DNA of 64,000 bases from an uncultured Bacillota bacterium (GTDB lineage: Bacteria > Bacillota > Clostridia > Christensenellales > UBA1242), in assembly GCA_949289785.1 (NCBI GenBank), contig CASEOW010000035.1, positions 13,851-77,850 on the forward strand, given 5' to 3'. The notes under the pieces are model-generated. The model searched no databases. It had not been told where the DNA came from and was given only the letters and a program-made list of their open reading frames with translations. Shown here in pieces: positions 4,370 to 59,488 of the stretch. Position 1 is the stretch's first letter, and each line of letters begins with the position of its first letter. A program made the position numbers and the translations under genes.

Positions 4370-4399
4370 TTGACAAATTTCGTCATAATATTTTATCAT
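4370..4399 (+). promoter_or_regulatory. Promoter of the GLUG-like lipoprotein gene, placing the TSS only a few nt before the ATG
   Basis: TTGACA-18 nt-TATCAT. The -10 ends ~10 nt before the ATG at 4410 and no Shine-Dalgarno sequence is present. Confidence 0.5.
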
Positions 4400-4409
4400 T
4401 TATATAGTT

Positions 4410-5378
4410 ATGATTAATATAAAATTTTTTAAGATTTGTATATTTTGTTTTTTATTATGTATATCTTTTTGTTTATATGCTTGTGAATATCAAAAAGAAA
4501 TAACTGATTCTGGTGCATCTGAAGAAGTTCAAAATGATACTATTCAAATAGATTCGTATCAAAAGCTTTTAGAAATTCAAAATAATGATTTTGAAAATAT
4601 TTCTAATATTGAACTTGTATGTGATATCGATTGTCAGGGTGGATATTGGTATGGTTTAGGAAATGAAGAAAATCCATTTGATATAGAATTTGATGGTAAT
4701 GGTTTTTCTATTAAAAATTTAACTTTAGTTAGTCAGAGCCAAAATATTGGTTTTATAAACTATGCTAAAGGTGCATATATTCATGATTTAACTTTTTCAT
4801 TTATAAGTGGACAAATTAATGTTTCAAATTCAAATTCTGGAATATTTGCAATATTGATAGATAGTAAAATTGAAAATATTCTTATTAATGATTGTAATTT
4901 TACTGTCATTGGAAGTGGAAATAATGTCGGTATAATGTGTGGATATGCAAATTTGATAAGTAATAATATACAAAATATAAAAATGTTTGGTAATTCTATA
5001 TATACATATTCAGAAGACAATGTAAGCGTAAATAACCAAGGACTATTATTTGGGTGTCTCGAATTAAAAAATGATATAAGTTTAGTTAATGTTGATTGTT
5101 CTAAAACTAATAGTATAATCACAGATTGTTTTTCAGATATGCAAATTAATTGTGGACTTATAATAGGTTGTTTAAAAACTAACTCTTTTAACATTGTAAT
5201 ACAAAATTATAATGTGTGTCAAAATATGATTATGATTAACAGTTTTTATAATACAAATTTAAAGGTGTTAATTGGATATGCAAGTGATACAAAGAAGATT
5301 ATTTTTGAGAATGGATTAGTTTATGAAAATGATGTTTTTGATGTTTGTAATGGAATTTATATAACAGAGGAGTTTTGA
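4410..5378 (+). CDS. Putative lipoprotein with GLUG-like / beta-helix repeat region (322 aa)
   Basis: Hydrophobic signal peptide ending LYAC (lipobox-like, Cys25). FDGNGFSIKNLTL...GIFA...NVGIMCG parallels the C-terminal region of the 1012-aa protein at 54732-57770 (YDGKGYKITNLT...AGLFA...AGIIAG). Confidence 0.65.
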   Translation: MINIKFFKICIFCFLLCISFCLYACEYQKEITDSGASEEVQNDTIQIDSYQKLLEIQNNDFENISNIELVCDIDCQGGYWYGLGNEENPFDIEFDGNGFSIKNLTLVSQSQNIGFINYAKGAYIHDLTFSFISGQINVSNSNSGIFAILIDSKIENILINDCNFTVIGSGNNVGIMCGYANLISNNIQNIKMFGNSIYTYSEDNVSVNNQGLLFGCLELKNDISLVNVDCSKTNSIITDCFSDMQINCGLIIGCLKTNSFNIVIQNYNVCQNMIMINSFYNTNLKVLIGYASDTKKIIFENGLVYENDVFDVCNGIYITEEF

Positions 5379-6396: not shown

Positions 6397-6655
6397 AGTA
6401 AAAACGATGATAGAAGAGTAGTAATTTTTTTGATTTATTACAGAGAACTTATTGCAGCTGAGAAATAAGTATAATAGAAAAAATGAATTCGCTTCTTAGT
6501 TGTGAATTCGAAATTAATTTTAATATTAAATTAAAAGTAGTTTTCATCGTGAATCTGCGTAAATGATTTACAATAAGGATTGATTATTCAATCGAAATTA
6601 GGTGGTACCACGAAGTTCTCTTTCGTCCTAATGGCAAAGAGAACTTTTTATTTTG
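6397..6655 (+). promoter_or_regulatory. T-box riboswitch leader (Phe specifier expected) with terminator
   Basis: Conserved T-box sequence AAATTAGGTGGTACCACG at ~6595-6612. An 11-bp terminator AAGTTCTCTTT/AAAGAGAACTT plus T-run lies at ~6613-6650. An AGAGA-like box (CAGAGAAC), a GA/K-turn-like GATGA and several TTC triplets (6488, 6493, 6507) sit in the stem I region. Confidence 0.85.
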
Positions 6656-6699: not shown

Positions 6700-7728
6700 G
6701 TGAAAGAAGAGTTACTAAGTTTAGAAAAAGAAGTATCACAAAAGGTAGATGCAGTTCAAGATTTGAAAGATTTAGCAGAAATAAAGGTTTATGTTTTTGG
6801 TAAAAATGGAGTAATTACGAATTTATCAAAGGGTATGCGTGATGTTGAACCTAACCAACGCAAAGAAGTTGGAATGTTGATTAACGATTTAAGAAACAAG
6901 TTGGAAAATAAAATTCAAGAAAAAGAAAAATTGTTAGAAGAAAAGCTTCTAAATGAAAAACTCGAATCTGAAAAAATCGACATAACTCAACCTGGTAAAG
7001 ATTGCAAGGTTGGAGCGCTTCATCCAACTAGTGATGTAATTGATAAATTAACTGATATTTGCGTAAATATGGGATTTTCTGTTGTTGAAGGTCCAGAAAT
7101 AGAAACAGATTATTACAATTTCGAAGCAATGAATATTCCTAAAAATCATCCTTCAAGAGATATGCAGGACACATTTTTTATAACTAACGAAATACTTTTA
7201 AGATCTCAAACTTCAGCTGTTCAGGCAAGAGAAATGGAAAAAAGAAAACCTCCATTTAAAATAGTTTGTCCTGGAAAAACTTATAGAAATGATAGTGATG
7301 CTACTCATAGTCCTGTTTTTCATCAATTAGAAGGTTTGGTTGTTGACGAAAATATATCTATGGCTGACCTTAAATCAATGCTTTTAACATTAATGAAAAG
7401 GTTGTATGGAGAAGATACTGTAATTAGATTTAGACCTTCATTCTTTCCTTTTACTGAACCTAGTATTGAAGTAGATTTAACTTGTCCTACTTGTCATGGC
7501 AAAGGGTGCTCTATTTGTAAAGGGACTGGAATGTTAGAATTGTTAGGTGCTGGAATTGTAAATCCTAAAGTTCTTGAAATGTCAGGTATTGATAGTAAAA
7601 AATATAGAGGTTTTGCATTTGGTTTTGGTTTGGATAGAGCTGGTATGCTTTTAAATAATATTTCTAATATTAAAAGCTTATTTAAAAATGATATTAGATT
7701 TTTGGAACAAATGAAAGGAGAAAGATAA
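6700..7728 (+). CDS. pheS: Phenylalanine-tRNA ligase alpha subunit
   Basis: GTG start after AAAGGAG. Motifs FRPSFFPFTEPS and GFGLDR are present, plus the Firmicute-type CPTCHGKGCSICKGTG insert. Confidence 0.97.
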   Translation: MKEELLSLEKEVSQKVDAVQDLKDLAEIKVYVFGKNGVITNLSKGMRDVEPNQRKEVGMLINDLRNKLENKIQEKEKLLEEKLLNEKLESEKIDITQPGKDCKVGALHPTSDVIDKLTDICVNMGFSVVEGPEIETDYYNFEAMNIPKNHPSRDMQDTFFITNEILLRSQTSAVQAREMEKRKPPFKIVCPGKTYRNDSDATHSPVFHQLEGLVVDENISMADLKSMLLTLMKRLYGEDTVIRFRPSFFPFTEPSIEVDLTCPTCHGKGCSICKGTGMLELLGAGIVNPKVLEMSGIDSKKYRGFAFGFGLDRAGMLLNNISNIKSLFKNDIRFLEQMKGER

Positions 7729-10128
7729 ATGAAAGTAACATATAATTGGCTTAAGGAATTTGTTAATATTTCTGCAACACCAGAAGATATTGCCCAAAAA
7801 TTAACATCTGCTGGATTTGAGGTTGAAGAAATAATTTATCAAAACAGATACTTACATGATGTTGTTGTTGGTAAAATTTTAAAAATTGAAAAACATCCAC
7901 AAGCAGATAGATTGGTTGTATGTCAGGTTGATATAGGAGATAAGATTGTCCAAATAATCACAGCAGCAACGAATGTTTTTGAAGGAGCTGTAATTCCTGT
8001 AAGTTTACCGGGTGCAAATTTAATTAATGGAATATCTATTTCTCCAACTAAAATGAGAGGAATAGAAAGTTTTGGTATGTTTTGCTCAGGTGAAGAATTA
8101 GGTATAGATGATAACTATTTTGAAGGTGCTGAGGTAAATGGAATCTTGATATTACCTAATGATATGAAAGTAGGTCAACCTATTGAAAAAGCATTAATGC
8201 TTGATGATGTAATATTTGATATTTCAGTAACACCTAACAGAGCTGATTGTTTAAGTGTTATAGGTATAGCAAGAGAAGTTTGTGCTTTATATGGTTTGGA
8301 GTGTAAAAAACTTAATTTAAGCTATGACATTAATGTTTATGATAAAGAAACAGTTCGTGATTATGTTAATGTAAGTGTAGAAACTTCTAATTGTCAAAGA
8401 TATATGGCTTGTGCTGTGAAAGATGTAAAAATTGAAAAATCTCCTTTATGGTTAAGAGCCAGATTGAATGCTGTAGGCATAAAACCTATATGCACTATGG
8501 TTGATATTACTAATTATGTTTTAATTGAACTTGGTCAACCAATGCATGCTTTTGACCAGGAAAATATCAAAGGTAAAAAGATTATTATAAGGCAAGCAAA
8601 TGAAGGCGAAAAGATCGATGCTTTAAATCATAATAGTTATAATTTAGATTCTGATGTTATGGTTATAGCAAACGAAAATGAACCTATGGTTATAGCTGGT
8701 ATTATTGGTGGAACTGATGCATCTATAAATTCTAATACAAAAATATCAATTTTTGAAAGTGCTGTCTTTGATGTTAAAAATATTAGACTAACTAGTAGAA
8801 AAATAGGTGTATCAACAGATTCTTCTGCTAGATACTCAAAAGGTGTTAATGTAGCTAATGCTGAATTAGGTATGCAAAGAGCACTACATTTGGTTAGTAA
8901 ATTAAAATGTGGGAAAATTGTAAGAGGTGTAATAGATATTTCCTCAGAAAAAAATGAATCTAGAATGATTACTGTTTCTATAAAACTCATAAATGATATT
9001 CTTGGAGTAGAAATACCTACAAAAGATATGGTTAAAATTTTAAATAGTTTAGGTATTGAAACTAAGCTAGTGGGAAATAGTTTAACTTGTAATGTTCCAC
9101 CATTTAGAACTGATATAGAAAATGATTATGATATAGCTGAGGAAATTATTAGACTTTATGGATATGATATTTATGACAAAATAAATTATAATTTATTTAA
9201 AAATTCTAAAGTTACTGAAGGACATCATCATCCTAGACTTTTGTTGGAAAGAAAATTTAGAAATTCTCTTGTTGAACATGGTTTTTATGAAAACATTTCT
9301 TATTCACTTGTAAGTCCTACTTCAGTTGATAAATTAATGTTAAATGATATTAGAAAGAATATAATAAAGATTGCTAATCCTATTACTGAAGATATTTCTG
9401 CAATGCGAACATCTTTAGCTCATTCTCTTTTTACAAATATTGCTTATAATTTAAGCGTAGGAAATAAAGAGATGCGTATTTTTGAATGTGGAAGAGTTTT
9501 CTTAACTGATACATTGCCTCTTACTAATCTCCCTTGTGAAAAAAATATGATTGGACTTGCTTGTAAAGAAAATGGTTTTGATTTTTATTCTTTAAAAGCT
9601 ATAGTTGAAAATTTACTTTCAAAAACTAGTATAAAATATAAATTGGAAAGATCTAAAGAACCTTTCTTGCATCCTGGAGTTTCAGCAGATATAATGGATG
9701 GAGATATAAAAGTGGGTAGTTTTGGGAAAATACATCCAAAGGTTGCTCAAAATTATGATATTCCTAACGATGTTTATTATGCTGAAATAGATGATGATTA
9801 TATTCTTAAATATGCTAATAAAAAAGTTGAAATGAAGCAAATTTCTAAATATCCTATAGTAGAAAGGGATCTTGCAGTTATTGTTAAAGAAGAAATTACT
9901 AATGATGAAATTATGCAAAGTATTAAGTCTTCATGTGGACAATTATATTTTAAGGCAGAATTATTTGATGTATATAGGAATGAATCAATTGGTAATGATA
10001 ATAAAAGTCTTGCTTATAATATAAAACTTTCAGATTTGAATAAAACTCTTACTGATGAAGAAGTAAGTAAAGTGATAAATAAAATTTTAAAAACTTTAAA
10101 CTATAAATTTGGAGCAGTGCTGAGATGA
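7729..10128 (+). CDS. pheT: Phenylalanine-tRNA ligase beta subunit
   Basis: N-terminal tRNA-binding domain (KHPQADRL), with B3/4, B5 and FDX-ACB regions. The ATG directly abuts the pheS stop. Confidence 0.97.
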   Translation: MKVTYNWLKEFVNISATPEDIAQKLTSAGFEVEEIIYQNRYLHDVVVGKILKIEKHPQADRLVVCQVDIGDKIVQIITAATNVFEGAVIPVSLPGANLINGISISPTKMRGIESFGMFCSGEELGIDDNYFEGAEVNGILILPNDMKVGQPIEKALMLDDVIFDISVTPNRADCLSVIGIAREVCALYGLECKKLNLSYDINVYDKETVRDYVNVSVETSNCQRYMACAVKDVKIEKSPLWLRARLNAVGIKPICTMVDITNYVLIELGQPMHAFDQENIKGKKIIIRQANEGEKIDALNHNSYNLDSDVMVIANENEPMVIAGIIGGTDASINSNTKISIFESAVFDVKNIRLTSRKIGVSTDSSARYSKGVNVANAELGMQRALHLVSKLKCGKIVRGVIDISSEKNESRMITVSIKLINDILGVEIPTKDMVKILNSLGIETKLVGNSLTCNVPPFRTDIENDYDIAEEIIRLYGYDIYDKINYNLFKNSKVTEGHHHPRLLLERKFRNSLVEHGFYENISYSLVSPTSVDKLMLNDIRKNIIKIANPITEDISAMRTSLAHSLFTNIAYNLSVGNKEMRIFECGRVFLTDTLPLTNLPCEKNMIGLACKENGFDFYSLKAIVENLLSKTSIKYKLERSKEPFLHPGVSADIMDGDIKVGSFGKIHPKVAQNYDIPNDVYYAEIDDDYILKYANKKVEMKQISKYPIVERDLAVIVKEEITNDEIMQSIKSSCGQLYFKAELFDVYRNESIGNDNKSLAYNIKLSDLNKTLTDEEVSKVINKILKTLNYKFGAVLR

Positions 10129-47036: not shown

Positions 47037-47333
47037 TTATTCTACTATTATATTATATATAATATCACTTAAATTCTTATTTTTCAAGGCTATTATTTTA
47101 CAATTATTTATTTTTATATATTCATTTAAATTTTTTAATTCAAGTGTTCTAATATTATTGTTTACTAGATTGTTAATTATTTTACAAGTATTTTTTTTTA
47201 TGTCATCATCATATAAAACAAGATAAATTTTACGATTATGTTGTAAAGCTTTTGAAATATTTTCGCCCCCTACAATTACATAACCTGCTTTTATAGCTAT
47301 GTTTAAATAGCCTAAAAGTTTATTTTTGTCCAA
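47037..47333 (-). CDS. L7Ae-family RNA-binding protein YlxQ-like
   Basis: LLGYLNIAIKAGYVIVGGENISKAL, positioned between ylxR and infB. Confidence 0.75.
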   Translation of the reverse strand: MDKNKLLGYLNIAIKAGYVIVGGENISKALQHNRKIYLVLYDDDIKKNTCKIINNLVNNNIRTLELKNLNEYIKINNCKIIALKNKNLSDIIYNIIVE

Positions 47334-49406: not shown

Positions 49407-50951
49407 TTAATTGGTTTTTATTTTGTGTAATTCAAGTAGAACTTTGGCAGTAGCTTCAGCATCATTGTATGCCCTATGTGCATCTAAAAGATTTATTCCA
49501 AGAGCTTTAGTTACTGTAATTAATTTAAAATTTTTAACTCTCAAATTTGATTGTCTAACAACAATCATAGTATCTATTATTTCGTTTTCAAACTTTATGC
49601 CTATTTTAGAAGCAACTTTATTTAAAAATTTCATATCAAATCCAATTATATTATAACCACTTATAATACAATCTTGAGACCAATTATAAAAATCGACTAT
49701 AACATCTTCAATTTTAGGAGCAAATTCAACCATTTCATTTGTTATATTGTTTATTTTTTGAACATCTATTGGAATAGGATATTTAGGTTTAGAAAATGAA
49801 GAAAAGCGTTCAATTATTTTACCATTTTCAATTTTTACTGCACCTATTTCTATAATCTCACTATTTTCAAAATCAAGCCCGGTTGTTTCAAGGTCAAAAA
49901 CTACAAATTTATTATTCATAATAAATTCATCATATTGATTTTTAATCTCAAATAAATTTGATTGAGAATTTTGACTAATCTTTTCCGGAAAAACTATTTG
50001 TTTATGTGATTTTAAAAAATCATCATCTTTAGATAAATTTTCATTTAAAGTTATAGGACTGGCAAGTGTTATCTTTTTTACATAATAAGTAAGTTTATTG
50101 TTAAGCCCTATATTTATATCTCCTAACATCAGTAAATAATTTTCATTTTCAAGTGATTCCATTGCTTTTTCATGAGTTTTAGGACAAAAATAGACACATT
50201 CAATAACTCCAGTAACATCTTTTAAATTAAAAGTATATAAACTCTTTTCTTTTCCAGCATTTTTACCTTTTTTAATAATAAATTTCTTTTGGTTTATATT
50301 ATCAATAAATCCTGATAAGATGACTGAAAGTTTAGGTTTCTTATTGTTTTTTATAAATTCTGGTTTAGGAATTATATTATCTCCTATTAATTTTTTTTCT
50401 ACAATAACATCATATCTTTGTGTTTTAGTTTTTGTTGTAATTATATCTTCAGCAACTATTTCTTGTGGTAATTTTTCTTCATTTTCAATTAAGTTAATAT
50501 TAAAAATTGCAATGTACAGTTTTTGAAGATATTCTTTAAGACTCGTAATTAAATCTTTTTCATCTAAAAGAGATAAAACATCTTGATTTAATTTAATTTC
50601 GATATCAACATTTTGATCATGATAAGTCGAAGAAATATTATCTTCATTTAAATAAGGTAAAAGTGCCTTTTTATTTTCTAAAAAATATCTAATAATGTCA
50701 TTTTTAATTAATTTTTCATCAAGAAAACTTTTTTTATATTTTATTTTTAATTCTGCATTTAAAGAAAAAAACTTTTGAATAAATTGTTGAATTTCTAATC
50801 TATCGCTTTGATTCATTTCTTCTATTTGATAAGGATATAAAAAAGTAATTTGACAAAGCATTATATTTTTATCATAAACAATTTCCAAAAGTTTTAAATA
50901 TTCATATTTATTATTAAAGTTTTTATTTAATTTTTCTATCAATGATTCCAT
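49407..50951 (-). CDS. PolC-like N-terminal domain + OB fold + DEDDh 3'-5' exonuclease, lacking PHP and polymerase domains (514 aa)
   Basis: Exo I FVVFDLETTGL, Exo II GYNIIGFDMKFL and Exo III HRAYNDAEATAKVL. A preceding OB-like segment reads SLYTFNLKDVTGVIECVYF...LLMLGDINI. The N-terminal ~190 aa resemble the PolC N-domain. The gene sits exactly where polC lies in Firmicute synteny (between rseP and rimP). Confidence 0.75.
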   Translation of the reverse strand: MESLIEKLNKNFNNKYEYLKLLEIVYDKNIMLCQITFLYPYQIEEMNQSDRLEIQQFIQKFFSLNAELKIKYKKSFLDEKLIKNDIIRYFLENKKALLPYLNEDNISSTYHDQNVDIEIKLNQDVLSLLDEKDLITSLKEYLQKLYIAIFNINLIENEEKLPQEIVAEDIITTKTKTQRYDVIVEKKLIGDNIIPKPEFIKNNKKPKLSVILSGFIDNINQKKFIIKKGKNAGKEKSLYTFNLKDVTGVIECVYFCPKTHEKAMESLENENYLLMLGDINIGLNNKLTYYVKKITLASPITLNENLSKDDDFLKSHKQIVFPEKISQNSQSNLFEIKNQYDEFIMNNKFVVFDLETTGLDFENSEIIEIGAVKIENGKIIERFSSFSKPKYPIPIDVQKINNITNEMVEFAPKIEDVIVDFYNWSQDCIISGYNIIGFDMKFLNKVASKIGIKFENEIIDTMIVVRQSNLRVKNFKLITVTKALGINLLDAHRAYNDAEATAKVLLELHKIKTN

Positions 50952-50960
50952 AAAGTTATT

Positions 50961-52145
50961 TTATAATAGAAAATGTAAAATGTCAATCAGAATTACGGCT
51001 CCAAATAAAACAATCAAACCTATTGTATGAATCATATTTTCAGTTTCTCTTTTTATAGGTTTTTTTCTTATAGCTTCGATTGATGTAAACAAAACATGTG
51101 CTCCATCTAAAGCTGGAATTGGCAAAATATTGAAAACAGCTAAATTGGCACTTATTAAAGGTATTAGAAGTAATAAATTAGATAAACTAGCTTGAGTGAA
51201 AGAAGCTATAGTTGCAATTGTGGTAACAGGTCCACCTATAGAAGAAATTGGAAGTTGAAAAGTAATTAATAAAAATAAACTCTTTAAAACAATCCAAGCA
51301 AGACCAAAAGAAAATGGTACAGCTCTTTCGAGAGCTTCACCGAAAGTATGAACATAAGCTTTAACATTCACATCCCAAAAATATTGATATTCAGTAATGA
51401 TTTCACCTTCATTATTATAAACAGGTTCTCCGTTTTCGTATTTTTCAACTAATACTTGTGCAAAACCTAATTGAACTTCCTTATATTCGCCATCTCTTCT
51501 CACAATTGCAGAAATTGTTGGATAATTTAAAAAAGCTTCTTTTTCGTCAATAGAAGAGTCTTTTTTTATCTCGTCAATATATGCTTTAAATTCATCTGCA
51601 TTTTGATTAACTATGTCATTATAATTTGCTCCATAAGCAAAATCAATTTTTTGTCCATCAATTGAGATAATAACATCACCAGATTGAAGTTTATCATCAT
51701 TACTTACATTTGTAAGATAACTTCCTTCTACAATGTGTTCTACATTTTGTGAATTTAGTTGAGTATATTCTACAAATTGTGGTATATCATAACCTATAGT
51801 ACAAAGTAATACAAGTGAAGTAACTACTGCAAAAGCAAAATTAAAAGATACGCCAGCAAGAAAAACTAAAATTCTTTTCCAAGGTTTTTGATTTACAAAA
51901 GAATCTTTATCTTTTTCATCACCATCTTCTCCAGCAAAGGCACAATATCCTCCTAAAGGAAATATTCTTAATGAAATTAATTCTCCCCTTTTATTTTTAC
52001 GAGAAAAAAGAGCTTTACCAAAGCCTACAGAAAATTCTGTAATTTTAAAATTTAACATTCTTCCAACAATATAATGTCCAAATTCGTGAACAAGAACCAT
52101 TAAAAGCAATACAACAATAGCTAAAATTATATAAAGAACAATCAT
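50961..52145 (-). CDS. rseP: RIP metalloprotease RseP/RasP (site-2 protease, M50) with PDZ domain
   Basis: HEFGH, a PDZ-like insert and NILPIPALDG. Confidence 0.9.
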   Translation of the reverse strand: MIVLYIILAIVVLLLMVLVHEFGHYIVGRMLNFKITEFSVGFGKALFSRKNKRGELISLRIFPLGGYCAFAGEDGDEKDKDSFVNQKPWKRILVFLAGVSFNFAFAVVTSLVLLCTIGYDIPQFVEYTQLNSQNVEHIVEGSYLTNVSNDDKLQSGDVIISIDGQKIDFAYGANYNDIVNQNADEFKAYIDEIKKDSSIDEKEAFLNYPTISAIVRRDGEYKEVQLGFAQVLVEKYENGEPVYNNEGEIITEYQYFWDVNVKAYVHTFGEALERAVPFSFGLAWIVLKSLFLLITFQLPISSIGGPVTTIATIASFTQASLSNLLLLIPLISANLAVFNILPIPALDGAHVLFTSIEAIRKKPIKRETENMIHTIGLIVLFGAVILIDILHFLL

Positions 52146-52283
52146 TAATTCTCCTATTTTTATTATATTTTATATTAAATATTTTATAACTATCATTAAC
52201 AATATTATTTAAATAATAAAAAAATCAATAAAAACGGAAAAATTTTGATTTAAAATAATTTTTCCGTTCGTTAATATTTTTCG

Positions 52284-53255
52284 TTAAATTATTGTAAAAA
52301 GTATACTAAATGCTATAAATAAGTATGGTGCCAAGAAAATGTATGAATCAAATCTATCTAACATACCACCATGTCCAGGAAAAATAGCCCCTGAATCTTT
52401 GATTTTCGCACTTCTTTTAAGATAACTTTCAAATAAATCTCCTAATTGAGATATTACACTTCCAATTGCAGATATTACTATTATTCTCCAAATATTTATT
52501 CCTGAGATTGAAAGTTGTGAAGCCATAGCTGGTATTGAATTAAAAATACAAATCACTACAACAGAAAGCAATACACACCATAATAGCCCACCAACAGCTC
52601 CAGCAATTGTTTTGTTAGGACTTATTTTAGGAGCAAGTTTTTTGCCACCTATTAGACCACCCATTAAATAAGCAAAAGTATCAGTAAATATTGGTATCAA
52701 AAATGCGAATAATAGTACAACTAAAGAAATTAAACCATTTCCTTGAGATATTTTGCTAAAAGATGTTGTCATGTCTTCAAAATGATTAATTAAAACTAAA
52801 AATGAAAGCAAAAATGCAGGATATATAAATACTAATGTATTGTTTAAAGATTTCAAAAATGAAAATTTAAAAATACCAACATGCTTGTCCATATTTATAG
52901 TTTTAGACTCAATTTTTGTATTTTTTCTATTAACTAAAGTTATTAAAAATGTAATTAAAAAGAAAAGAATAATGCTTGCTACCATCATAACAATAGTATA
53001 AATAATTCCTATTTGACTATCAAAATTTATACAAATCAACAATATTAACATTAAGAATGCTGGAAATATTACAGAAAGTAACTTATTATTATATTTTCCA
53101 GTTTTTCCAAATATTTTAGAAGCTTCATAACTTGAAATACAGGTAATTAAAAGTATTAAAGCATCAAAAAAATAATTGCTTACATAAAATTTTAATATAA
53201 AAGCTAATATCAACACTAAAACTATGCCTATAGAAGTAAAAAATCTCGTTTTCAC
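52284..53255 (-). CDS. cdsA: Phosphatidate cytidylyltransferase
   Basis: The signature SYLKRSAKIKDSGAIFPGHGGMLDRFDS is present. The N-terminal region is longer than usual. Confidence 0.87.
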   Translation of the reverse strand: MKTRFFTSIGIVLVLILAFILKFYVSNYFFDALILLITCISSYEASKIFGKTGKYNNKLLSVIFPAFLMLILLICINFDSQIGIIYTIVMMVASIILFFLITFLITLVNRKNTKIESKTINMDKHVGIFKFSFLKSLNNTLVFIYPAFLLSFLVLINHFEDMTTSFSKISQGNGLISLVVLLFAFLIPIFTDTFAYLMGGLIGGKKLAPKISPNKTIAGAVGGLLWCVLLSVVVICIFNSIPAMASQLSISGINIWRIIVISAIGSVISQLGDLFESYLKRSAKIKDSGAIFPGHGGMLDRFDSYIFLAPYLFIAFSILFTII

Positions 53256-54013: not shown

Positions 54014-54580
54014 TTATACTTCCATAATTTCTTTTTCTTTAGTTTTATAATTGTCTTCTATCTTATCACAAGCATTATCAATTGCTTTTTGTATATCTTC
54101 ACTATATCCGTTTTTTTCATCTTCAGAAATTTCGCTGTTTTTTTCTAAGTCTTTTATCATTTCCATAGCATCTCTTCTTGCATTTCTAACTGCAATTTTG
54201 CTATCTTCAGCAATTTTTTTAATTGACTTAACAATTTCAAGACGCCTTTGTTCAGTTAACATAGGAAAGATTAATCTAATTACTTTTCCATCTTCATTAG
54301 GTGTAACACCTAAGTCAGCTTGACTAATAGCTTTAGAAATATTTTTTACTTGACTTTGATCCCAAACTGAAATAGCAAGAATTCTAGCTTCTGGAACAGT
54401 TATACTAGCCATGTTTTTTATAGGCGTAGGAACTCCATAATAATCTACATATACTTTGTCAAGAATATGAGGATTAGCACGACCTGCTCTTATAACTAAA
54501 TATTCATTTAATTGATGATTTATAGCCTTTTCAATTTCATTGTCAAGTTCTAACATTATATCTTCAATCATTTCACTCAT
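54014..54580 (-). CDS. frr: Ribosome recycling factor
   Basis: LVIRAGRANPHILDKVYVDYYG...ITVPEARIL...NARRDA. Confidence 0.97.
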   Translation of the reverse strand: MSEMIEDIMLELDNEIEKAINHQLNEYLVIRAGRANPHILDKVYVDYYGVPTPIKNMASITVPEARILAISVWDQSQVKNISKAISQADLGVTPNEDGKVIRLIFPMLTEQRRLEIVKSIKKIAEDSKIAVRNARRDAMEMIKDLEKNSEISEDEKNGYSEDIQKAIDNACDKIEDNYKTKEKEIMEV

Positions 54581-54600
54581 AAAAATCTCCTCTAGATTGT

Positions 54601-54629
54601 ATTTTACAATAATCTAAAAAAAAATGCAA
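54601..54629 (-). promoter_or_regulatory. Dedicated promoter for frr-uppS-cdsA
   Basis: On the - strand, TTGCAT-17 nt-TAAAAT upstream of RBS GAGGAG. Confidence 0.6.
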
Positions 54630-54662
54630 ATGATTTATATAAATATTAAATTATAAAGATAT

Positions 54663-54700
54663 AAAAAAAAGAAGAAATAAATATAAATTATTTCTTCTTT
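54663..54700 (-). terminator. Intrinsic terminator of the surface-protein gene
   Basis: On the - strand, AAGAAGAAATAA-(loop)-TTATTTCTTCTT followed by T8. Confidence 0.8.
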
Positions 54701-54731
54701 TGAAAAGTTGACTTAAATTAAAAGTAGTTAT

Positions 54732-57700
54732 TTAATTTTTATTTGATAACCATTTTTCTAAAGTACCGCTATTTAATTCTTCATAAGGATACCAAGCAAT
54801 AGCTATAGGAATTGGATAAGATAAATTTTCAATATAACACCAACCAGAATAATCATTAAAATTGATTTTTCCTTTTTCACCTGTATTTAATTGATATAAG
54901 CAATTCTTAATGGTTTCTGAATTTCCTATTACACTTGTATTAACATTTATTGCAAGACAATTATTAATTTGCCCACCATTTCCTACAATACTTCCTTTAG
55001 TTGTTCCATTTACCGTTCCAGAAACAATACAATTTTCTATTATTGAAGTTGAATTTGCATTACCAGCAATTATTCCTGCTGTTTCACCATTTATAGTTGC
55101 ATTTTCAATTATTAAATTTTTTATTGTTCCTCCACTTATATTAGCAAATAAGCCAGCATAATTATTTATATAATTAGAATATTCATTTAATTCATCACTA
55201 GTAGTGAGATTTGTTATTTTATAACCTTTACCGTCATAATTGCCTGTGAAAGTATAGTTATTTCCCATTGGTAACCATATTACTCCACTCAAATCTATAT
55301 CATTAGTTTGAATAAAAGAATATGTATTTCCAATATCCTGTTTTTCTAATGTTACAGCTAATTTTAATAAATCATGTGCATTTGAAATTTCATAAGTTCC
55401 AGCTTGATTAAAAGATTCTATGCCATCCTCTATTGCTTCACTGGTTGCAGTAGCTTGCCACTGTGCTGTTAAGGTAACTGTTACTTTATCAGTTGATGTT
55501 AAATTTATGAAATAGTTTGATGTAATTTTTTTAGAAGTATCATTCCATTGATAATTTAAAGAAGAAGATGCTTTGCCATACTTTGCAGTGTTTGTATTTA
55601 ATCCACTTGCCGTCCAACCTAAAAATAAGTAACCTGTTTTGGTTGGATTATCAATTAATATTACTTGATCATAAATTGCACTTGAAGGGGTATTATTACC
55701 ATTCGTTCCACCATTTAGATTATAAGATATATTATAAGTAATTGCAGTCCATTGAGCGTAAAGTGTTATGGTTGAAGAACCATCAGCATTTGGATTTGAA
55801 ATTAAATTTTTTACATTTTGTCCTGCTAAGTATTTTGTTCCAGTTCCATTAGCATTTGTGTTCCAACTGTCAAATATATAACCTGTTTTTATGAAACCAT
55901 TATTACTTAAATTTTGAGAAACATTATAAGTAAAAGTTTGACTTGAAGTTGCACCTGCTGTATTTCCATTTCCATTGTAAATAACTTTATAACTAATAGG
56001 TTCATAAATTGCATATAAATTTAACGTATAATCATTATCATTTATGTATGTATTAAAACTATTTGTAGAAGTTATAACATCACCATTTTGAGTTAATGAC
56101 CATCCTTTAAAAATATATCCAGTTTTATTAGACATACTCTTTAAAACAATACTACTTATGTTATCATATTCATATGTGCTTGATGCATATGTTTCATCTA
56201 AATATTCATTTGTTTCAGTATTTTTATCATAATAATTTAATCTTAAAACATTGTACCTTGTAGTAATACAAATTACATTATCCCAACTTCCAGAAGGATT
56301 AAAAATATCACTAGTAGTATAACTACATGACCATATGACACCACTATTTGATTTAGTTAAAGTTCCTTTTCCGGTTGTAGTAGTTAAGTATATGTTTGTA
56401 ATTTGTGTACCTGTACTTCCTTTTATATTTGTAAGTGTCCATGTTTGGTTTTGATTTAAGTATGGATTGTCTGGTTTATTTGATAAAGAATTACCATTTG
56501 AAATAGTGTATTCTTCATCTGTTGTAGATATGTTGAAAGTCCCACCATTTTGTGTTGATCCATCAGGTTTGTAAAAATTAATATCTATTTTATAATAATT
56601 TTTCATTTTTATTGTTATAACATGTTTACTAGTACCGGTGCATTTAAAAATATAATTATTTCCACTTTTAGTCATAGTCAAACCACTACCGCAAGTAACA
56701 CTTTCAACTTTCATTCCTGATGCTGGAGTGATATTTGATATAGTCCAACTTTTATCAAATGAAATCTTAGCATCAGAACCACTTGGTTCATTATACAAAC
56801 CATTTAAAACTGTTCCTTCATCAGTAGTTAATGTAAATGTTCCATTTTCATCAGTTTGATAATCTTCAACACCATCTTGCCCTAAAATATTTATATTTAC
56901 ACTATATTCATTAGGTATATAATTTGCATAAAGATTTGAATTTGGAGTGTAAAAAAAACCACAATCTGGATCTGGATCGATATTACCTTCATCATCTACA
57001 TCAAAAACTTTTGTTCCTGTGCCATTTTTTCCTGTGTAAAACCCTTCAAGTGTGTATCCTGTTCTTTTAAAATTACTATAATTATAGCCACTATATTCTT
57101 GCTCAATTAATGTTGAATATCCTGTATAAAATTCATATGATTCAGAATTATAATTTATTAAATTATATTTGTAAAATGCAGTTATGTAAATGTATAAATT
57201 AGTGTTGCTTTCTGTTGCACTTCCAGTATCAAATTTAGTAGAAAATTCTAAAGAAGTTTTGTAATTTGATATTGAGAAACTTTGTAAAGTAATTTCTTTA
57301 ACATAAGTAGATCCTCTATAATATGTAACATATACTGAACCTATATAACATCCGCTTCTTGAAGATGTAATTTCAAAATTTAAAGTTCTACTTTTTTGAA
57401 TGAATGCTAACCATTTTTCATATGTACCAGTTTTTGTATTATATATACCACCATATAAACCATTACCACTACCATCTAGAGCAGAATAAGAATACTGTGC
57501 TGTTAAGTTTCCAGATACTATAGTATGTTCTCCATCATAAAGTAATGAATAAGAAAGAGAAAAAGGTGAATAATTTGTTGAAGTTTCTTTACTATTATAA
57601 CCCATTGAATATATTTGAACTGTAGCTGTTGTAGATGACGCTTTTGTTGTATTTTTATCGTTATCTTTATTTATTAATAAAAATAATATACCAACACTAA

Positions 57701-57770
57701 AAAGCATTAATATTATAAAAAATATAGTTGTAATCTTAATAAATTCTTTATTTTTATTAATCTTAAACAT
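54732..57770 (-). CDS. Large N-terminally anchored surface protein with Listeria/Bacteroides-type repeats and a C-terminal GLUG-like beta-helix region (1012 aa)
   Basis: An N-terminal TM/signal anchor is present and there is no LPXTG. Repeated KTGYxFxGW...LYAxW modules resemble the Flg_new-type repeat. The C-terminal YDGKGYKITNLT...AGLFANISGGTIKNLII...AGIIAGN...GSIVGNGG is GLUG-like. Confidence 0.8.
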   Translation of the reverse strand: MFKINKNKEFIKITTIFFIILMLFSVGILFLLINKDNDKNTTKASSTTATVQIYSMGYNSKETSTNYSPFSLSYSLLYDGEHTIVSGNLTAQYSYSALDGSGNGLYGGIYNTKTGTYEKWLAFIQKSRTLNFEITSSRSGCYIGSVYVTYYRGSTYVKEITLQSFSISNYKTSLEFSTKFDTGSATESNTNLYIYITAFYKYNLINYNSESYEFYTGYSTLIEQEYSGYNYSNFKRTGYTLEGFYTGKNGTGTKVFDVDDEGNIDPDPDCGFFYTPNSNLYANYIPNEYSVNINILGQDGVEDYQTDENGTFTLTTDEGTVLNGLYNEPSGSDAKISFDKSWTISNITPASGMKVESVTCGSGLTMTKSGNNYIFKCTGTSKHVITIKMKNYYKIDINFYKPDGSTQNGGTFNISTTDEEYTISNGNSLSNKPDNPYLNQNQTWTLTNIKGSTGTQITNIYLTTTTGKGTLTKSNSGVIWSCSYTTSDIFNPSGSWDNVICITTRYNVLRLNYYDKNTETNEYLDETYASSTYEYDNISSIVLKSMSNKTGYIFKGWSLTQNGDVITSTNSFNTYINDNDYTLNLYAIYEPISYKVIYNGNGNTAGATSSQTFTYNVSQNLSNNGFIKTGYIFDSWNTNANGTGTKYLAGQNVKNLISNPNADGSSTITLYAQWTAITYNISYNLNGGTNGNNTPSSAIYDQVILIDNPTKTGYLFLGWTASGLNTNTAKYGKASSSLNYQWNDTSKKITSNYFINLTSTDKVTVTLTAQWQATATSEAIEDGIESFNQAGTYEISNAHDLLKLAVTLEKQDIGNTYSFIQTNDIDLSGVIWLPMGNNYTFTGNYDGKGYKITNLTTSDELNEYSNYINNYAGLFANISGGTIKNLIIENATINGETAGIIAGNANSTSIIENCIVSGTVNGTTKGSIVGNGGQINNCLAINVNTSVIGNSETIKNCLYQLNTGEKGKINFNDYSGWCYIENLSYPIPIAIAWYPYEELNSGTLEKWLSNKN

Positions 57771-57836
57771 TTTTCTCCTTAATATTAAAAATGGAATCTA
57801 TAATATTATGTGTAAAAATAAAATTACTATATTTAT

Positions 57837-57866
57837 ATGATAATATTTTTTTTTAAATTAAGTCAA
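57837..57866 (-). promoter_or_regulatory. Promoter of the surface-protein gene
   Basis: On the - strand, TTGACT-18 nt-TATCAT, then RBS AAGGAG. Confidence 0.6.
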
Positions 57867-57883
57867 ATCTTACAATATTTTTT

Positions 57884-57920
57884 TAAAAAAAACTTATAGT
57901 TGAACTATAAGTTTTTTTTA
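57884..57920. terminator. Bidirectional intrinsic terminator directly after tsf
   Basis: A8-ACTTATAGT-TGA-ACTATAAGT-T8. Confidence 0.85.
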
Positions 57921-57923
57921 AAA

Positions 57924-58577
57924 TTATTTATTATTTATTTGCTTATTTACTTCGTCTGCAAGATTATCATTTCTTTTTTCAAGTCCTTCTCCCATTTCAA
58001 ATCTTGCAAATCTTCTTATAGATATTTTCTCACCTATTTGAAGAGTCTTTTCATTTATATAAGCTTGAATAGTAAGATTAGGATCTTTTACAAAAGTTTG
58101 TTCAAGAAGACAAACATCTTGATAGAATTTTTTTACTCTACCTTCAACCATTTTGTCTATAATTTGAGCAGGTTTTCCTTCATTTAATGCTTGATTTCTT
58201 AGAATTTCTTTTTCTTTTTCAAGTTCCTCAACTGGAACATCTTCTATTCTTACATATTTAGGTGCTGCTGCAGCAATTTGAAGAGCAACATCATGTCCGA
58301 TTTCTTGAAAAGCTTCTGTTTTAGCTACAAAATCTGTTTCACAATTAATTTCTACAAGCACACCAATTTTTCCACCCATATGAATGTATGATGTAACAAT
58401 ACCTTCAGATGCAATTCTTGATTGTTTTTTAGCAGCAGCTGCAATACCTTTTTCTCTAAGCCAAACTATAGCTTTTTCAAAATCTCCATCACATTCTACA
58501 AGAGCTTTTTTACAATCCATCATTCCTGCATTTGTTTTTGCTCTAAGTTCTGCAACATCTTTTGCTGTAAAATTCAT
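57924..58577 (-). CDS. tsf: Elongation factor Ts (short form, 217 aa)
   Basis: The UBA-like N-terminus [19 protein letters not shown] is followed by [17 protein letters not shown]. Confidence 0.95.
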
Positions 58578-58579
58578 AA

Positions 58580-59488
58580 TTATTCTCCTTCTTCTTCAGA
58601 TTTTGTTTCATTAGAAACTTTTTCTTCTTTTGTTACTTCAGACTTATTTTCTTTCTTTTCAGTTTTTTTCTTTGAAGGTTTTTTTCTAGTATTTTTCTTT
58701 AAATTTTCTTCGCCTGCTTCTGCTATTTCAAGATTAGGTTTAGTTTCTGCAAGAACTTTTTCGATATCAATATCTTCATCTTGTTCTTCATCTTTTTTCA
58801 TAGAAACACCTTCTCTTGCTTCAATAACTGCATCAGCTAAAGCTGCAATAACAAGTTTTACACTTCTAATAGCATCATCGTTTCCAGGAATAACATATCC
58901 AATACCATCAGGGTTTCCATTAGTATCACAAAGACCAACCATTGGAATACCAAGAATTTTACATTCATTAACGCAAATGTGTTCTACATTTGGGTCAACA
59001 AGAATTACTGCACCTGGAAGTTCTCTCATTTCCTTAATTCCGCCTAAACTTTTTTCAAGTTTATCTCTTTCAGTCTTAAGTAATGTAACTTCTTTTTTAG
59101 GTAAAAGATCAAATTCACCAACTTTTTCCATTTGATTAAGTTTATTTAATCTTTCAATTCTTGATTTTATAGTTTTAAAGTTAGTTAAAAGTCCGCCGAG
59201 CCAATGCGAATTAATATAATACATTCCACATCTTTCAGCTTCCTCTTTTACAGCATCTTGTGCTTGTTTTTTTGTTCCTACGAAAAGAACGCTTTTTCCA
59301 CTAGCAACAACATCACGAATAAATATATAAGCTTTGTCTACTAGTTCTGAAGTTTGTTCTAGATTAATGATATGGATATCATTTCTTGCAGTAAAAATGT
59401 ATTTTTTCATTTTTGGATTCCATTTTCTTGTTTGATGTCCAAAATGAACGCCTGCTTCTAGAAGTTGTTTCATTGAAATAACTGACAT
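58580..59488 (-). CDS. rpsB: 30S ribosomal protein S2 with ~60-aa charged C-terminal tail
   Basis: [22 protein letters not shown] is present. The tail is K/E-rich ([27 protein letters not shown]...). Confidence 0.97.

Follow-up and report, generated by a model that had tools for sequence, protein, structure and literature searches.

A predicted surface-protein gene in the usual pyrH position between tsf and frr probably reflects old pyrH departure and later gene turnover in uncultured Clostridia

The gene order rpsB-tsf-pyrH-frr-uppS-cdsA is among the most conserved gene clusters of bacteria, and pyrH, encoding UMP kinase, is essential. Within it, tsf-pyrH-frr has been described as a common cluster (PMC2837039). 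Intervals between core genes are also described as hot spots of gene turnover; many of these hot spots contain no mobile elements, and the core genes next to them undergo recombination (PMC5635113). Proteins with Flg_new or Listeria-Bacteroides repeats are counted among the adhesion factors of gut-associated microbes (PMC7883539). Here we analyze a 64-kb stretch of DNA from an uncultured Bacillota bacterium (the window; ~25% G+C, that is 75% A+T, in which the standard bacterial code reads cleanly). Between tsf and frr, in the exact position that pyrH usually holds, it carries a gene for a predicted surface protein of 1012 amino acids (aa). Comparison with related species suggests that the locus probably has a two-step history, consisting of an old departure of pyrH and a later turnover of accessory genes at tsf-frr, with the 1012-aa gene as the occupant in this species. 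What looks like a dramatic operon disruption would then be an old relocation or loss of pyrH, followed by ordinary turnover in the leftover spacer.

On the minus strand the genes run in the order thrS' - yajC - DUF3792 - secD - secF - rpsB - tsf, followed by the 1012-aa open reading frame (ORF) and frr, and past frr by uppS - cdsA - rseP - a 514-aa OB/exonuclease protein - rimP - nusA and, further on, infB. Pfam names the neighbors of the 1012-aa ORF as rpsB, tsf, frr, uppS, cdsA and rseP; tsf follows rpsB after a 2-nucleotide (nt) gap (Ribosomal_S2, EF_TS), and frr-uppS-cdsA is present downstream (RRF, Prenyltransf, CTP_transf_1). As in the canonical cluster, rpsB-tsf and frr-uppS-cdsA-rseP-...-rimP-nusA-infB stand in canonical order; unlike in that cluster, pyrH is missing, here and across the near clade. 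The four genes at the center of the locus are:

58580-59488, minus strand: rpsB (Pfam Ribosomal_S2)
57924-58577, minus strand: tsf, for an EF-Ts of the short type (217 aa; Pfam EF_TS, E = 1.7e-43)
54732-57770, minus strand: coding sequence of the predicted 1012-aa surface protein, the ORF between tsf and frr
54014-54580, minus strand: frr, ribosome recycling factor (Pfam RRF, E = 6.6e-60)

An earlier note on this DNA had placed the 1012-aa ORF between tsf and frr and had reported the window to be free of pyrH, and both statements are borne out. The ORF is the only one in the gap, and Rfam and tRNA scans of the gap gave no match. A tblastn search of the window with E. coli PyrH returned only a chance match in clpP, and the gap contains no pyrH remnant. 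With the same query, 58 of 69 other loci yielded a pyrH immediately behind tsf, at 41-56% identity, which makes the negative result in the window meaningful. In more distant Clostridia (Christensenellaceae, Eubacteriaceae) and in other phyla, tsf-pyrH-frr is the usual order; since pyrH follows tsf in those 58 of 69 more distant genomes, its loss is specific to certain clades.

Related species were collected by an EF-Ts scan, with one genome per species, and by look-ups of the members of the EF-Ts 90%-identity cluster (134 members). All eight are uncultured Clostridia represented by metagenome-assembled genomes only, with a G+C content of 26-34% in seven of them (43% in L021) and an EF-Ts that is 64-93% identical to that of the window. 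Synteny is the same wherever the flanks sufficed (~5-10 kb on each side, all but L021), and L042 was checked from rpsB to nusA. In none of the related species examined does pyrH lie between tsf and frr, and the 1012-aa gene is found in this gap in none of the eight. The gap instead takes the following forms:

L020: empty, 241 bp; EF-Ts 93% identical
L042: empty, 266 bp; EF-Ts 64% identical
L010-14, L019 and L102-104 (three species): opposite strand, a HipA_C-like gene of 356-363 aa (weak HipA_C match) plus a gene of 107-126 aa
L105-107: same strand, a GT4 glycosyltransferase plus an acyltransferase
L021: opposite strand, a 238-aa gene without known identity; EF-Ts 71% identical

Nine species, including this one, thus display five gap states when the empty one is counted. 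The cargo genes of the sister species have left no remnant anywhere in the window. As a separate observation, the HipA_C-like pair (L010:8736-10135, L019:5180-6563, L102:5822-7363) is only 41-47% identical between species, next to EF-Ts of ~90% identity. Judging from these values the pair either evolves fast or was repeatedly exchanged, and it may be a toxin-antitoxin or defense module.

The earlier note had proposed that the 1012-aa gene entered an intact rpsB-tsf-pyrH-frr operon, displaced pyrH and thereby created separate transcription units. This would fit the absence of pyrH from both the gap and the 64-kb window, as well as the terminators that flank the gene and the promoter that frr has of its own. 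The relatives argue against it, as sister species with an empty gap (L020, L042) or with unrelated genes in it also lack pyrH there, and no pyrH remnant is left in the gap. Near relatives being without pyrH whether the gap is empty or filled, its departure predates the 1012-aa gene, and on comparative sequence grounds the removal of pyrH from the tsf-frr position is a shared, older feature of the clade. That the clade would be without any pyrH at all appears very improbable to us. The proposed splitting of the operon fails in the same manner, because the two elements that separate the units are also found in the relatives:

57881-57922, minus strand: intrinsic terminator after tsf, consisting of A-tract, hairpin and U-tract (-17.9 kcal/mol, z = -8.2; hairpin z scores here and below are against dinucleotide shuffles)
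54601-54641, minus strand: frr promoter, AAATCATTTGCA-T9...-TAAAAT, with motif and spacing kept in L020, L019, L010, L102 and L105

An equivalent hairpin and T-run follow tsf in 7/7 related species, including L020 with its empty gap. The arrangement AAATCATTTGCA-N17/18-TA(G/T)TAAAAT, then a Shine-Dalgarno sequence and ATG, precedes frr in the nearest five species (5/7), again including L020; the motif is not clearly recognizable in L021 and L042. As terminator and promoter motif are both present at the empty site, the split into two units predates the arrival of the gene, and we give the displacement of pyrH by this gene hardly any weight. The individual elements were nonetheless described correctly in the earlier note. 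The hairpin after tsf lies between an A-tract and a U-tract and, from its sequence, could act in both directions. The separate frr promoter, listed by the scanner as TTTGCA-18-TAAAAT, is much better supported than hexamers alone would be, as five sister species have kept its motif. The spacer of this promoter contains T9 in L019 and A8 in L010, while L020 is without such a tract. The same note had reasoned that related genomes with this very gene between tsf and frr, and with pyrH always elsewhere, would point to an old fixed arrangement rather than an accessory insertion. The relatives split this alternative into two: the absence of pyrH is shared and represents an old arrangement, but the gene itself is not shared and, at this position, is species-specific (0/8 related species), in line with the accessory, self-contained adhesin-like gene that the note had described.

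Since all sequences are metagenome assemblies, and one of the same-species scaffolds (L006) carries an unrelated GC-rich end of 516 bp, an assembly or binning artefact in the form of a chimeric contig had to be considered. Same-species contigs were found through look-ups of identical Frr or EF-Ts and come from 9 samples; neither the 1012-aa product nor P0001 had a match in an exact-protein look-up. These independent contigs are 99.5-100% identical to the window over one or both ORF junctions. Both junctions are covered by L004 and L005, the left one by L015-L017 and the right one by L002, L006 and L007, all from different samples. This excludes misassembly and indicates that the gene is fixed in the species, leaving an artefact with a practically negligible chance. 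Two apparent variants of the gene were discarded. The 303-aa variant in L006 results from a chimeric scaffold, whose GC-rich end (L006:1-516) is unrelated, and the 991-aa one in L004 arises from calling another start on DNA that is 99.7% identical.

In the two-step history that we favor, the rpsB-tsf-pyrH-frr cluster of the clade would have lost pyrH before the gene arrived. By then it would have consisted of two units, rpsB-tsf up to its terminator and frr-uppS-cdsA from its own promoter, and the short spacer left between tsf and frr would have become a hot spot of gene turnover between species. The 1012-aa gene would derive from a family of mosaic surface proteins that is native to related gut Clostridia of low G+C content. 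Its arrival would most likely have been as a promoter-gene-terminator cassette by recombination, without recognizable mobile-element machinery, followed by fixation. We infer both gain as the direction of the event and the mechanism of transfer. Like the hot spots of Oliveira et al. 2017 (PMC5635113), tsf-frr is one interval between core genes that holds varied accessory genes or none, has conserved flanks and is free of mobile-element genes. It differs in that the interval once housed an essential gene of a highly conserved cluster, and the comparison runs across species of an uncultured clade instead of strains, with "hot spot" used outside the statistical definition of those authors. Within the window, the tsf-frr gap contains no transposase and no integrase.

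Alternatively, the gene could be ancestral at tsf-frr in the near clade and have been deleted in L020 and replaced by the HipA-like pair or by the glycosyltransferase and acyltransferase in other sisters. The relatives, being about equally distant, do give a star-like picture, the gene is compositionally native and the gap clearly undergoes replacement. Yet the gene occupies this gap in one species only and is also missing from the more distant L042 and L021, tblastn finds no remnant of it in the gaps of the other species, and members of its family hold different loci in other genomes. We therefore regard an ancestral gene as unlikely and an acquisition in the two-step history as the better account.

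Composition gave no sign of foreign origin, be it in G+C, in codon usage or in G+C at third codon positions (GC3). GC3 of the 1012-aa gene is 0.109 compared with 0.08-0.15 in its neighbors, and its codon-usage distance lies within the neighbors' range. The comparison with the flanking genes that the earlier note had suggested thus returned no foreign signal, the gene matching its neighbors. If the family is native to related low-GC gut Clostridia, as proposed above, a composition that matches the host would follow. Homology searches gave 163 matches in total, most of them through the repeats only. The closest are 31-61% identical over part or all of the length and come from other low-GC metagenomic contigs. 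Five homologues have a readable context, and each is a single gene at a junction of housekeeping genes: feoB|X|hrcA-grpE-dnaK, recA|X, tuf|X|sepF (twice) and rplK-rplA|X, where X is the homologue. The two tuf|X|sepF loci, L101 and L108, have flanks that are 91-94% identical; between them, promoter and 3' third are conserved, and the 5' two-thirds of the gene cannot be aligned. This pattern indicates that the family is mosaic and exchanges modules within the gene. The homologue at the rplA junction adjoins a Y1 (IS200/IS605-type) transposase (L111:6720-7175, directly downstream of P0023).

The 1012-aa gene itself is bracketed by an inverted repeat, TTGACTTAAWTTAAAA, whose arms lie at the -35 hexamer and 8 nt beyond the stop codon:

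57851-57866, minus strand: left arm of the 16-nt inverted repeat, TTGACTTAATTTAAAA, exact copy, overlapping the -35 hexamer
54708-54723, plus strand: right arm of the 16-nt inverted repeat (TTGACTTAAATTAAAA on the plus strand), exact copy, 8 nt after the stop codon

This arrangement could mean that the gene is carried in a small non-autonomous cassette, either mobile or of the site-specific recombination type, with TTGACTTAAWTTAAAA as its boundaries. Only two exact copies of the 16-nt sequence exist in the 64 kb, they are inverted and lie precisely at the promoter -35 and just after the stop, and one homologue has a transposase as its neighbor. However, when the flanks were shuffled, a repeat of equal or greater length arose in 38 of 1000 trials (p ~0.04, marginal). 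The outer edges of the repeat display no target-site duplication, the gap is without transposase or integrase, none of the five homologous genes is flanked by comparable repeats, and neither the rest of the window nor the loci retrieved from other species contain a further copy. Being marginal against shuffles and absent at the homologous loci, the inverted repeat was not adopted as the mechanism, and we consider such a bounded cassette quite improbable.

Several points weigh against the two-step history and the role we attach to its latest occupant. The comparison includes eight related species only. These are nearly equidistant (tsf 83-86% nucleotide identity), so that a gain here is not formally separable from loss or replacement elsewhere. 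The pyrH of the source genome was not located in a search that covered the 64-kb window. The inverted repeat around the gene, although marginal, is not explained by simple recombination, and the promoter hexamers of the gene are statistically indistinguishable from background. With regard to the protein, anchoring is uncertain, as no lipobox and no LPXTG, SLH (S-layer homology) or other wall-binding module was found. Its most likely role, proposed by analogy of fold and domains, would be that of an adhesin whose surface ligand is of host, dietary or microbial origin.

The 1012-aa protein is predicted to be a chain of all-beta modules behind a single membrane helix. Domain boundaries were taken from sequence motifs and AlphaFold2 (AF2) models:

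57672-57734, minus strand: N-terminal signal-anchor or membrane helix, residues 13-33 (mean Kyte-Doolittle hydropathy 3.0)
57123-57638, minus strand: N-terminal beta-sandwich, residues 45-216 (AF2 strands; predicted local distance difference test, pLDDT, ~65-85)
56901-57065, minus strand: first Listeria-Bacteroides-type repeat (GYTLEGF ... LYANY), residues 236-290 (motif scan, alignment)
56226-56900, minus strand: two Ig-like all-beta modules, residues 291-515 (AF2, low confidence)
55455-56225, minus strand: three Flg_new/TIGR02543 repeats, residues 516-772 (Pfam PF09479, TIGR02543)
54735-55454, minus strand: C-terminal right-handed beta-helix of the GLUG/M26 N-terminal region type, residues 773-1012 (AF2 model)

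Residues 13-33 form the sole hydrophobic segment and follow a lysine-rich start, and AF2 places a helix at 11-35. The beta-sandwich at residues 45-216 has no Pfam match and is common only to the closest family members, being conserved in P0002 and P0003. Four GYxFxGW motifs mark the repeats, which score above threshold for PF09479 (Flg_new; 47.9 bits, cut-off 27) and, in three stretches, for TIGR02543 (30 bits against 20.95); a PDB profile search matched only the InlB B-repeat. The full-length AF2 model, built on a 14-sequence alignment, is of low confidence overall (pLDDT 63), with a C-terminal domain that is modeled confidently. Its Foldseek matches are generic pilus adhesins (SpaC, PitA) at template modeling (TM) scores of ~0.1, which show only a chain of Ig-like domains. 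Modeled alone, the C-terminal 243 aa yield a parallel beta-helix (pLDDT 82.8, predicted TM score 0.84). The closest PDB structure is 3n6z (probability 1.0, TM 0.51), which is a putative Bacteroides ovatus IgA1 protease, and the S. pneumoniae IgA1 protease and helices of the pectate-lyase type are also among the best matches. The membrane anchor and the Listeria/Bacteroides-type repeats of the earlier note were thereby recovered. Of its GLUG-like beta-helix, the helix is seen in the AF2 model, but GLUG is not called by Pfam, and Peptidase_M26_N reaches 23.9 bits on this domain, below its cut-off of 27.7.

Like the N-terminal region of M26 IgA1 metalloproteases and GLUG modules (PDB 3n6z, 6xja), the protein thus ends in a parallel beta-helix, for which these are the best PDB matches. 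Unlike those enzymes it has no HExxH motif anywhere in its 1012 aa and no catalytic domain, Pfam finding no match to the M26 C-terminal domain, and the Pfam scores of this region stay below the curated cut-offs. Lacking HExxH, the protein is not a protease. With the Flg_new and InlB B-repeat proteins it shares the repeats as well as a large, modular, all-beta and apparently exported build; it differs from InlB-type proteins in having no leucine-rich-repeat internalin domain and neither an LPXTG nor a GW anchor. It also departs from sortase-anchored Gram-positive adhesins and pilins, as the [LIV]Px[TSA][GANS] sorting motif is absent and the C-terminus is hydrophilic. The N-terminal beta-sandwich combined with the C-terminal beta-helix sets it in a small separate family. 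The beta-helix module occurs in 6284 representative proteins (E <= 1e-3), many of them giant and with up to 18 copies, and forms the C-terminal end of a 930-1140-aa protein in only about a dozen 50%-identity representatives. From this architecture we infer display on the surface. The protein would be exported through Sec and be held by, or cleaved after, the single N-terminal hydrophobic helix, and a stalk of beta-sandwich, Ig-like modules and four Listeria-Bacteroides repeats would project the C-terminal beta-helix from the cell. Overall, the 1012-aa gene is a further case of known kinds, namely of hot-spot insertion and of Flg_new surface proteins.

The window encodes a second protein with this beta-helix module. 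A 322-aa ORF at 4410-5378 (plus strand), which the earlier note had called a domain-level paralogue, has the beta-helix domain as well (hhalign probability 93%, E = 2.7e-7), and the designation stands. The TTGACA-18-TATCAT sequence upstream of it ends 10 nt before the ATG, without a Shine-Dalgarno sequence (window 4370-5378, plus strand); this would mean a leaderless mRNA or a true start further downstream.

The 1012-aa gene is accompanied by candidate control elements of its own:

57837-57866, minus strand: promoter-like TTGACT-18-TATCAT, with 10/12 consensus positions matching
57846-57854, minus strand: A9 tract inside the -35/-10 spacer, 1 of 3 homopolymers of at least 9 nt in 64 kb
57775-57780, minus strand: Shine-Dalgarno sequence AAGGAG, 4 nt before the ATG, read from the sequence
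54659-54701, minus strand: intrinsic terminator belonging to the gene, with a stem of 14 bp and then U8 (hairpin 54667-54701; -13.0 kcal/mol, z = -5.2)

The ribosome-binding site and the terminator agree with the earlier note. Its promoter is present as a sequence, but a consensus promoter scan of the region found 27 sites compared with 35.6 expected from shuffles, that is, no enrichment. As promoter-like sites are not above chance, TTGACT-18-TATCAT alone is not evidence of a promoter, though it plausibly serves as that of the 1012-aa gene. A consensus scanner missed both this terminator and the one after tsf because their A+T-rich stems have fewer than 3 G-C pairs. With these elements, the gene would be transcribed independently. 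The window contains only three homopolymers of at least 9 nt (54616-54624, 57846-57854 and 47191-47199), two of which sit in -35/-10 spacers, namely the T9 of the frr promoter and the A9 of the surface-protein promoter.

Homopolymer tracts are a familiar device of phase-variable surface genes, among them Bordetella fim and Mycoplasma hyorhinis vlp. Further reports describe homopolymeric tracts in Bordetella pertussis (PMC1891110), a poly-A tract in the promoter of nspA from N. meningitidis (PMC6389960), and repeats in the promoter and coding region of H. pylori sabA (PMC2715451). The homologues of the 1012-aa gene have a layout of this type. In 5/5 readable homologous loci a poly-G tract separates a TTGAC(A) -35 hexamer from an extended -10 element (TGGTATAAT or TGGTATTAT):

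L099:5870-5925: G9
L100:1815-1870: G10
L101:5885-5945: G9
L108:3895-3935: G6
L111:3940-3985: G9

These tracts are the only G or C runs of at least 8 nt in the homologous loci, and at the shared tuf|X|sepF locus G9 in L101 stands against G6 in L108 in an otherwise near-identical promoter. A metagenome-wide scan for the poly-G promoter motif gave 0 matches. G6, G9 or G10 between -35 and -10 corresponds to the classical layout of slipped-strand phase variation and suggests that the promoters of the homologues are phase-variable. Compared with such systems, the 1012-aa gene has its A9 in the same place, yet this is an A/T tract in DNA of 75% A+T and its length is fixed, with A9 in 6/6 same-species contigs and no variation among these consensus assemblies. 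Phase variation of the 1012-aa gene is thus unproven.

The homologous loci point to a large mosaic surface-protein family with homopolymer-tract promoters that may mediate attachment to host or particles and antigenic variation, and we consider this poly-G-promoter family the most rewarding part of the finding. A further-reaching possibility, which we put forward tentatively and hold to be doubtful, is that the 1012-aa gene belongs to an undescribed mosaic family of uncultured gut Clostridia that combines expression switching by tract slippage in the promoter spacer with cassette exchange between species via homology arms in tsf, tuf, rplA, recA and the dnaK region, for which tsf-frr would be one landing pad. 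In practical terms, tsf-frr offers a reliable variable locus with very conserved flanks for telling apart species and strains of this uncultured clade of gut Clostridia.

Elsewhere in the cluster, pyrH is not the only gene that departs from the expected order. Against the B. subtilis arrangement, dxr and proS are also absent, and rseP directly follows cdsA, with the exonuclease gene directly after rseP (50961-53255, minus strand). The canonical position of polC, between rseP and rimP, holds only the 514-aa protein with an OB-fold and a DEDD exonuclease domain (49407-50951, minus strand). It matches PolC residues ~412-585 and lacks both PHP and polymerase domains; in L010-14, L020 and L042 the rseP-rimP position is likewise taken by a protein of 509-523 aa. 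It could be part of a split PolC or a stand-alone proofreading subunit. Finally, a T-box leader (110 bits) lies at 6398-6633 on the plus strand, upstream of the ORFs at 6700-7728 and 7729-10128, and a tRNA-Leu(AAG) gene at 2247-2328.

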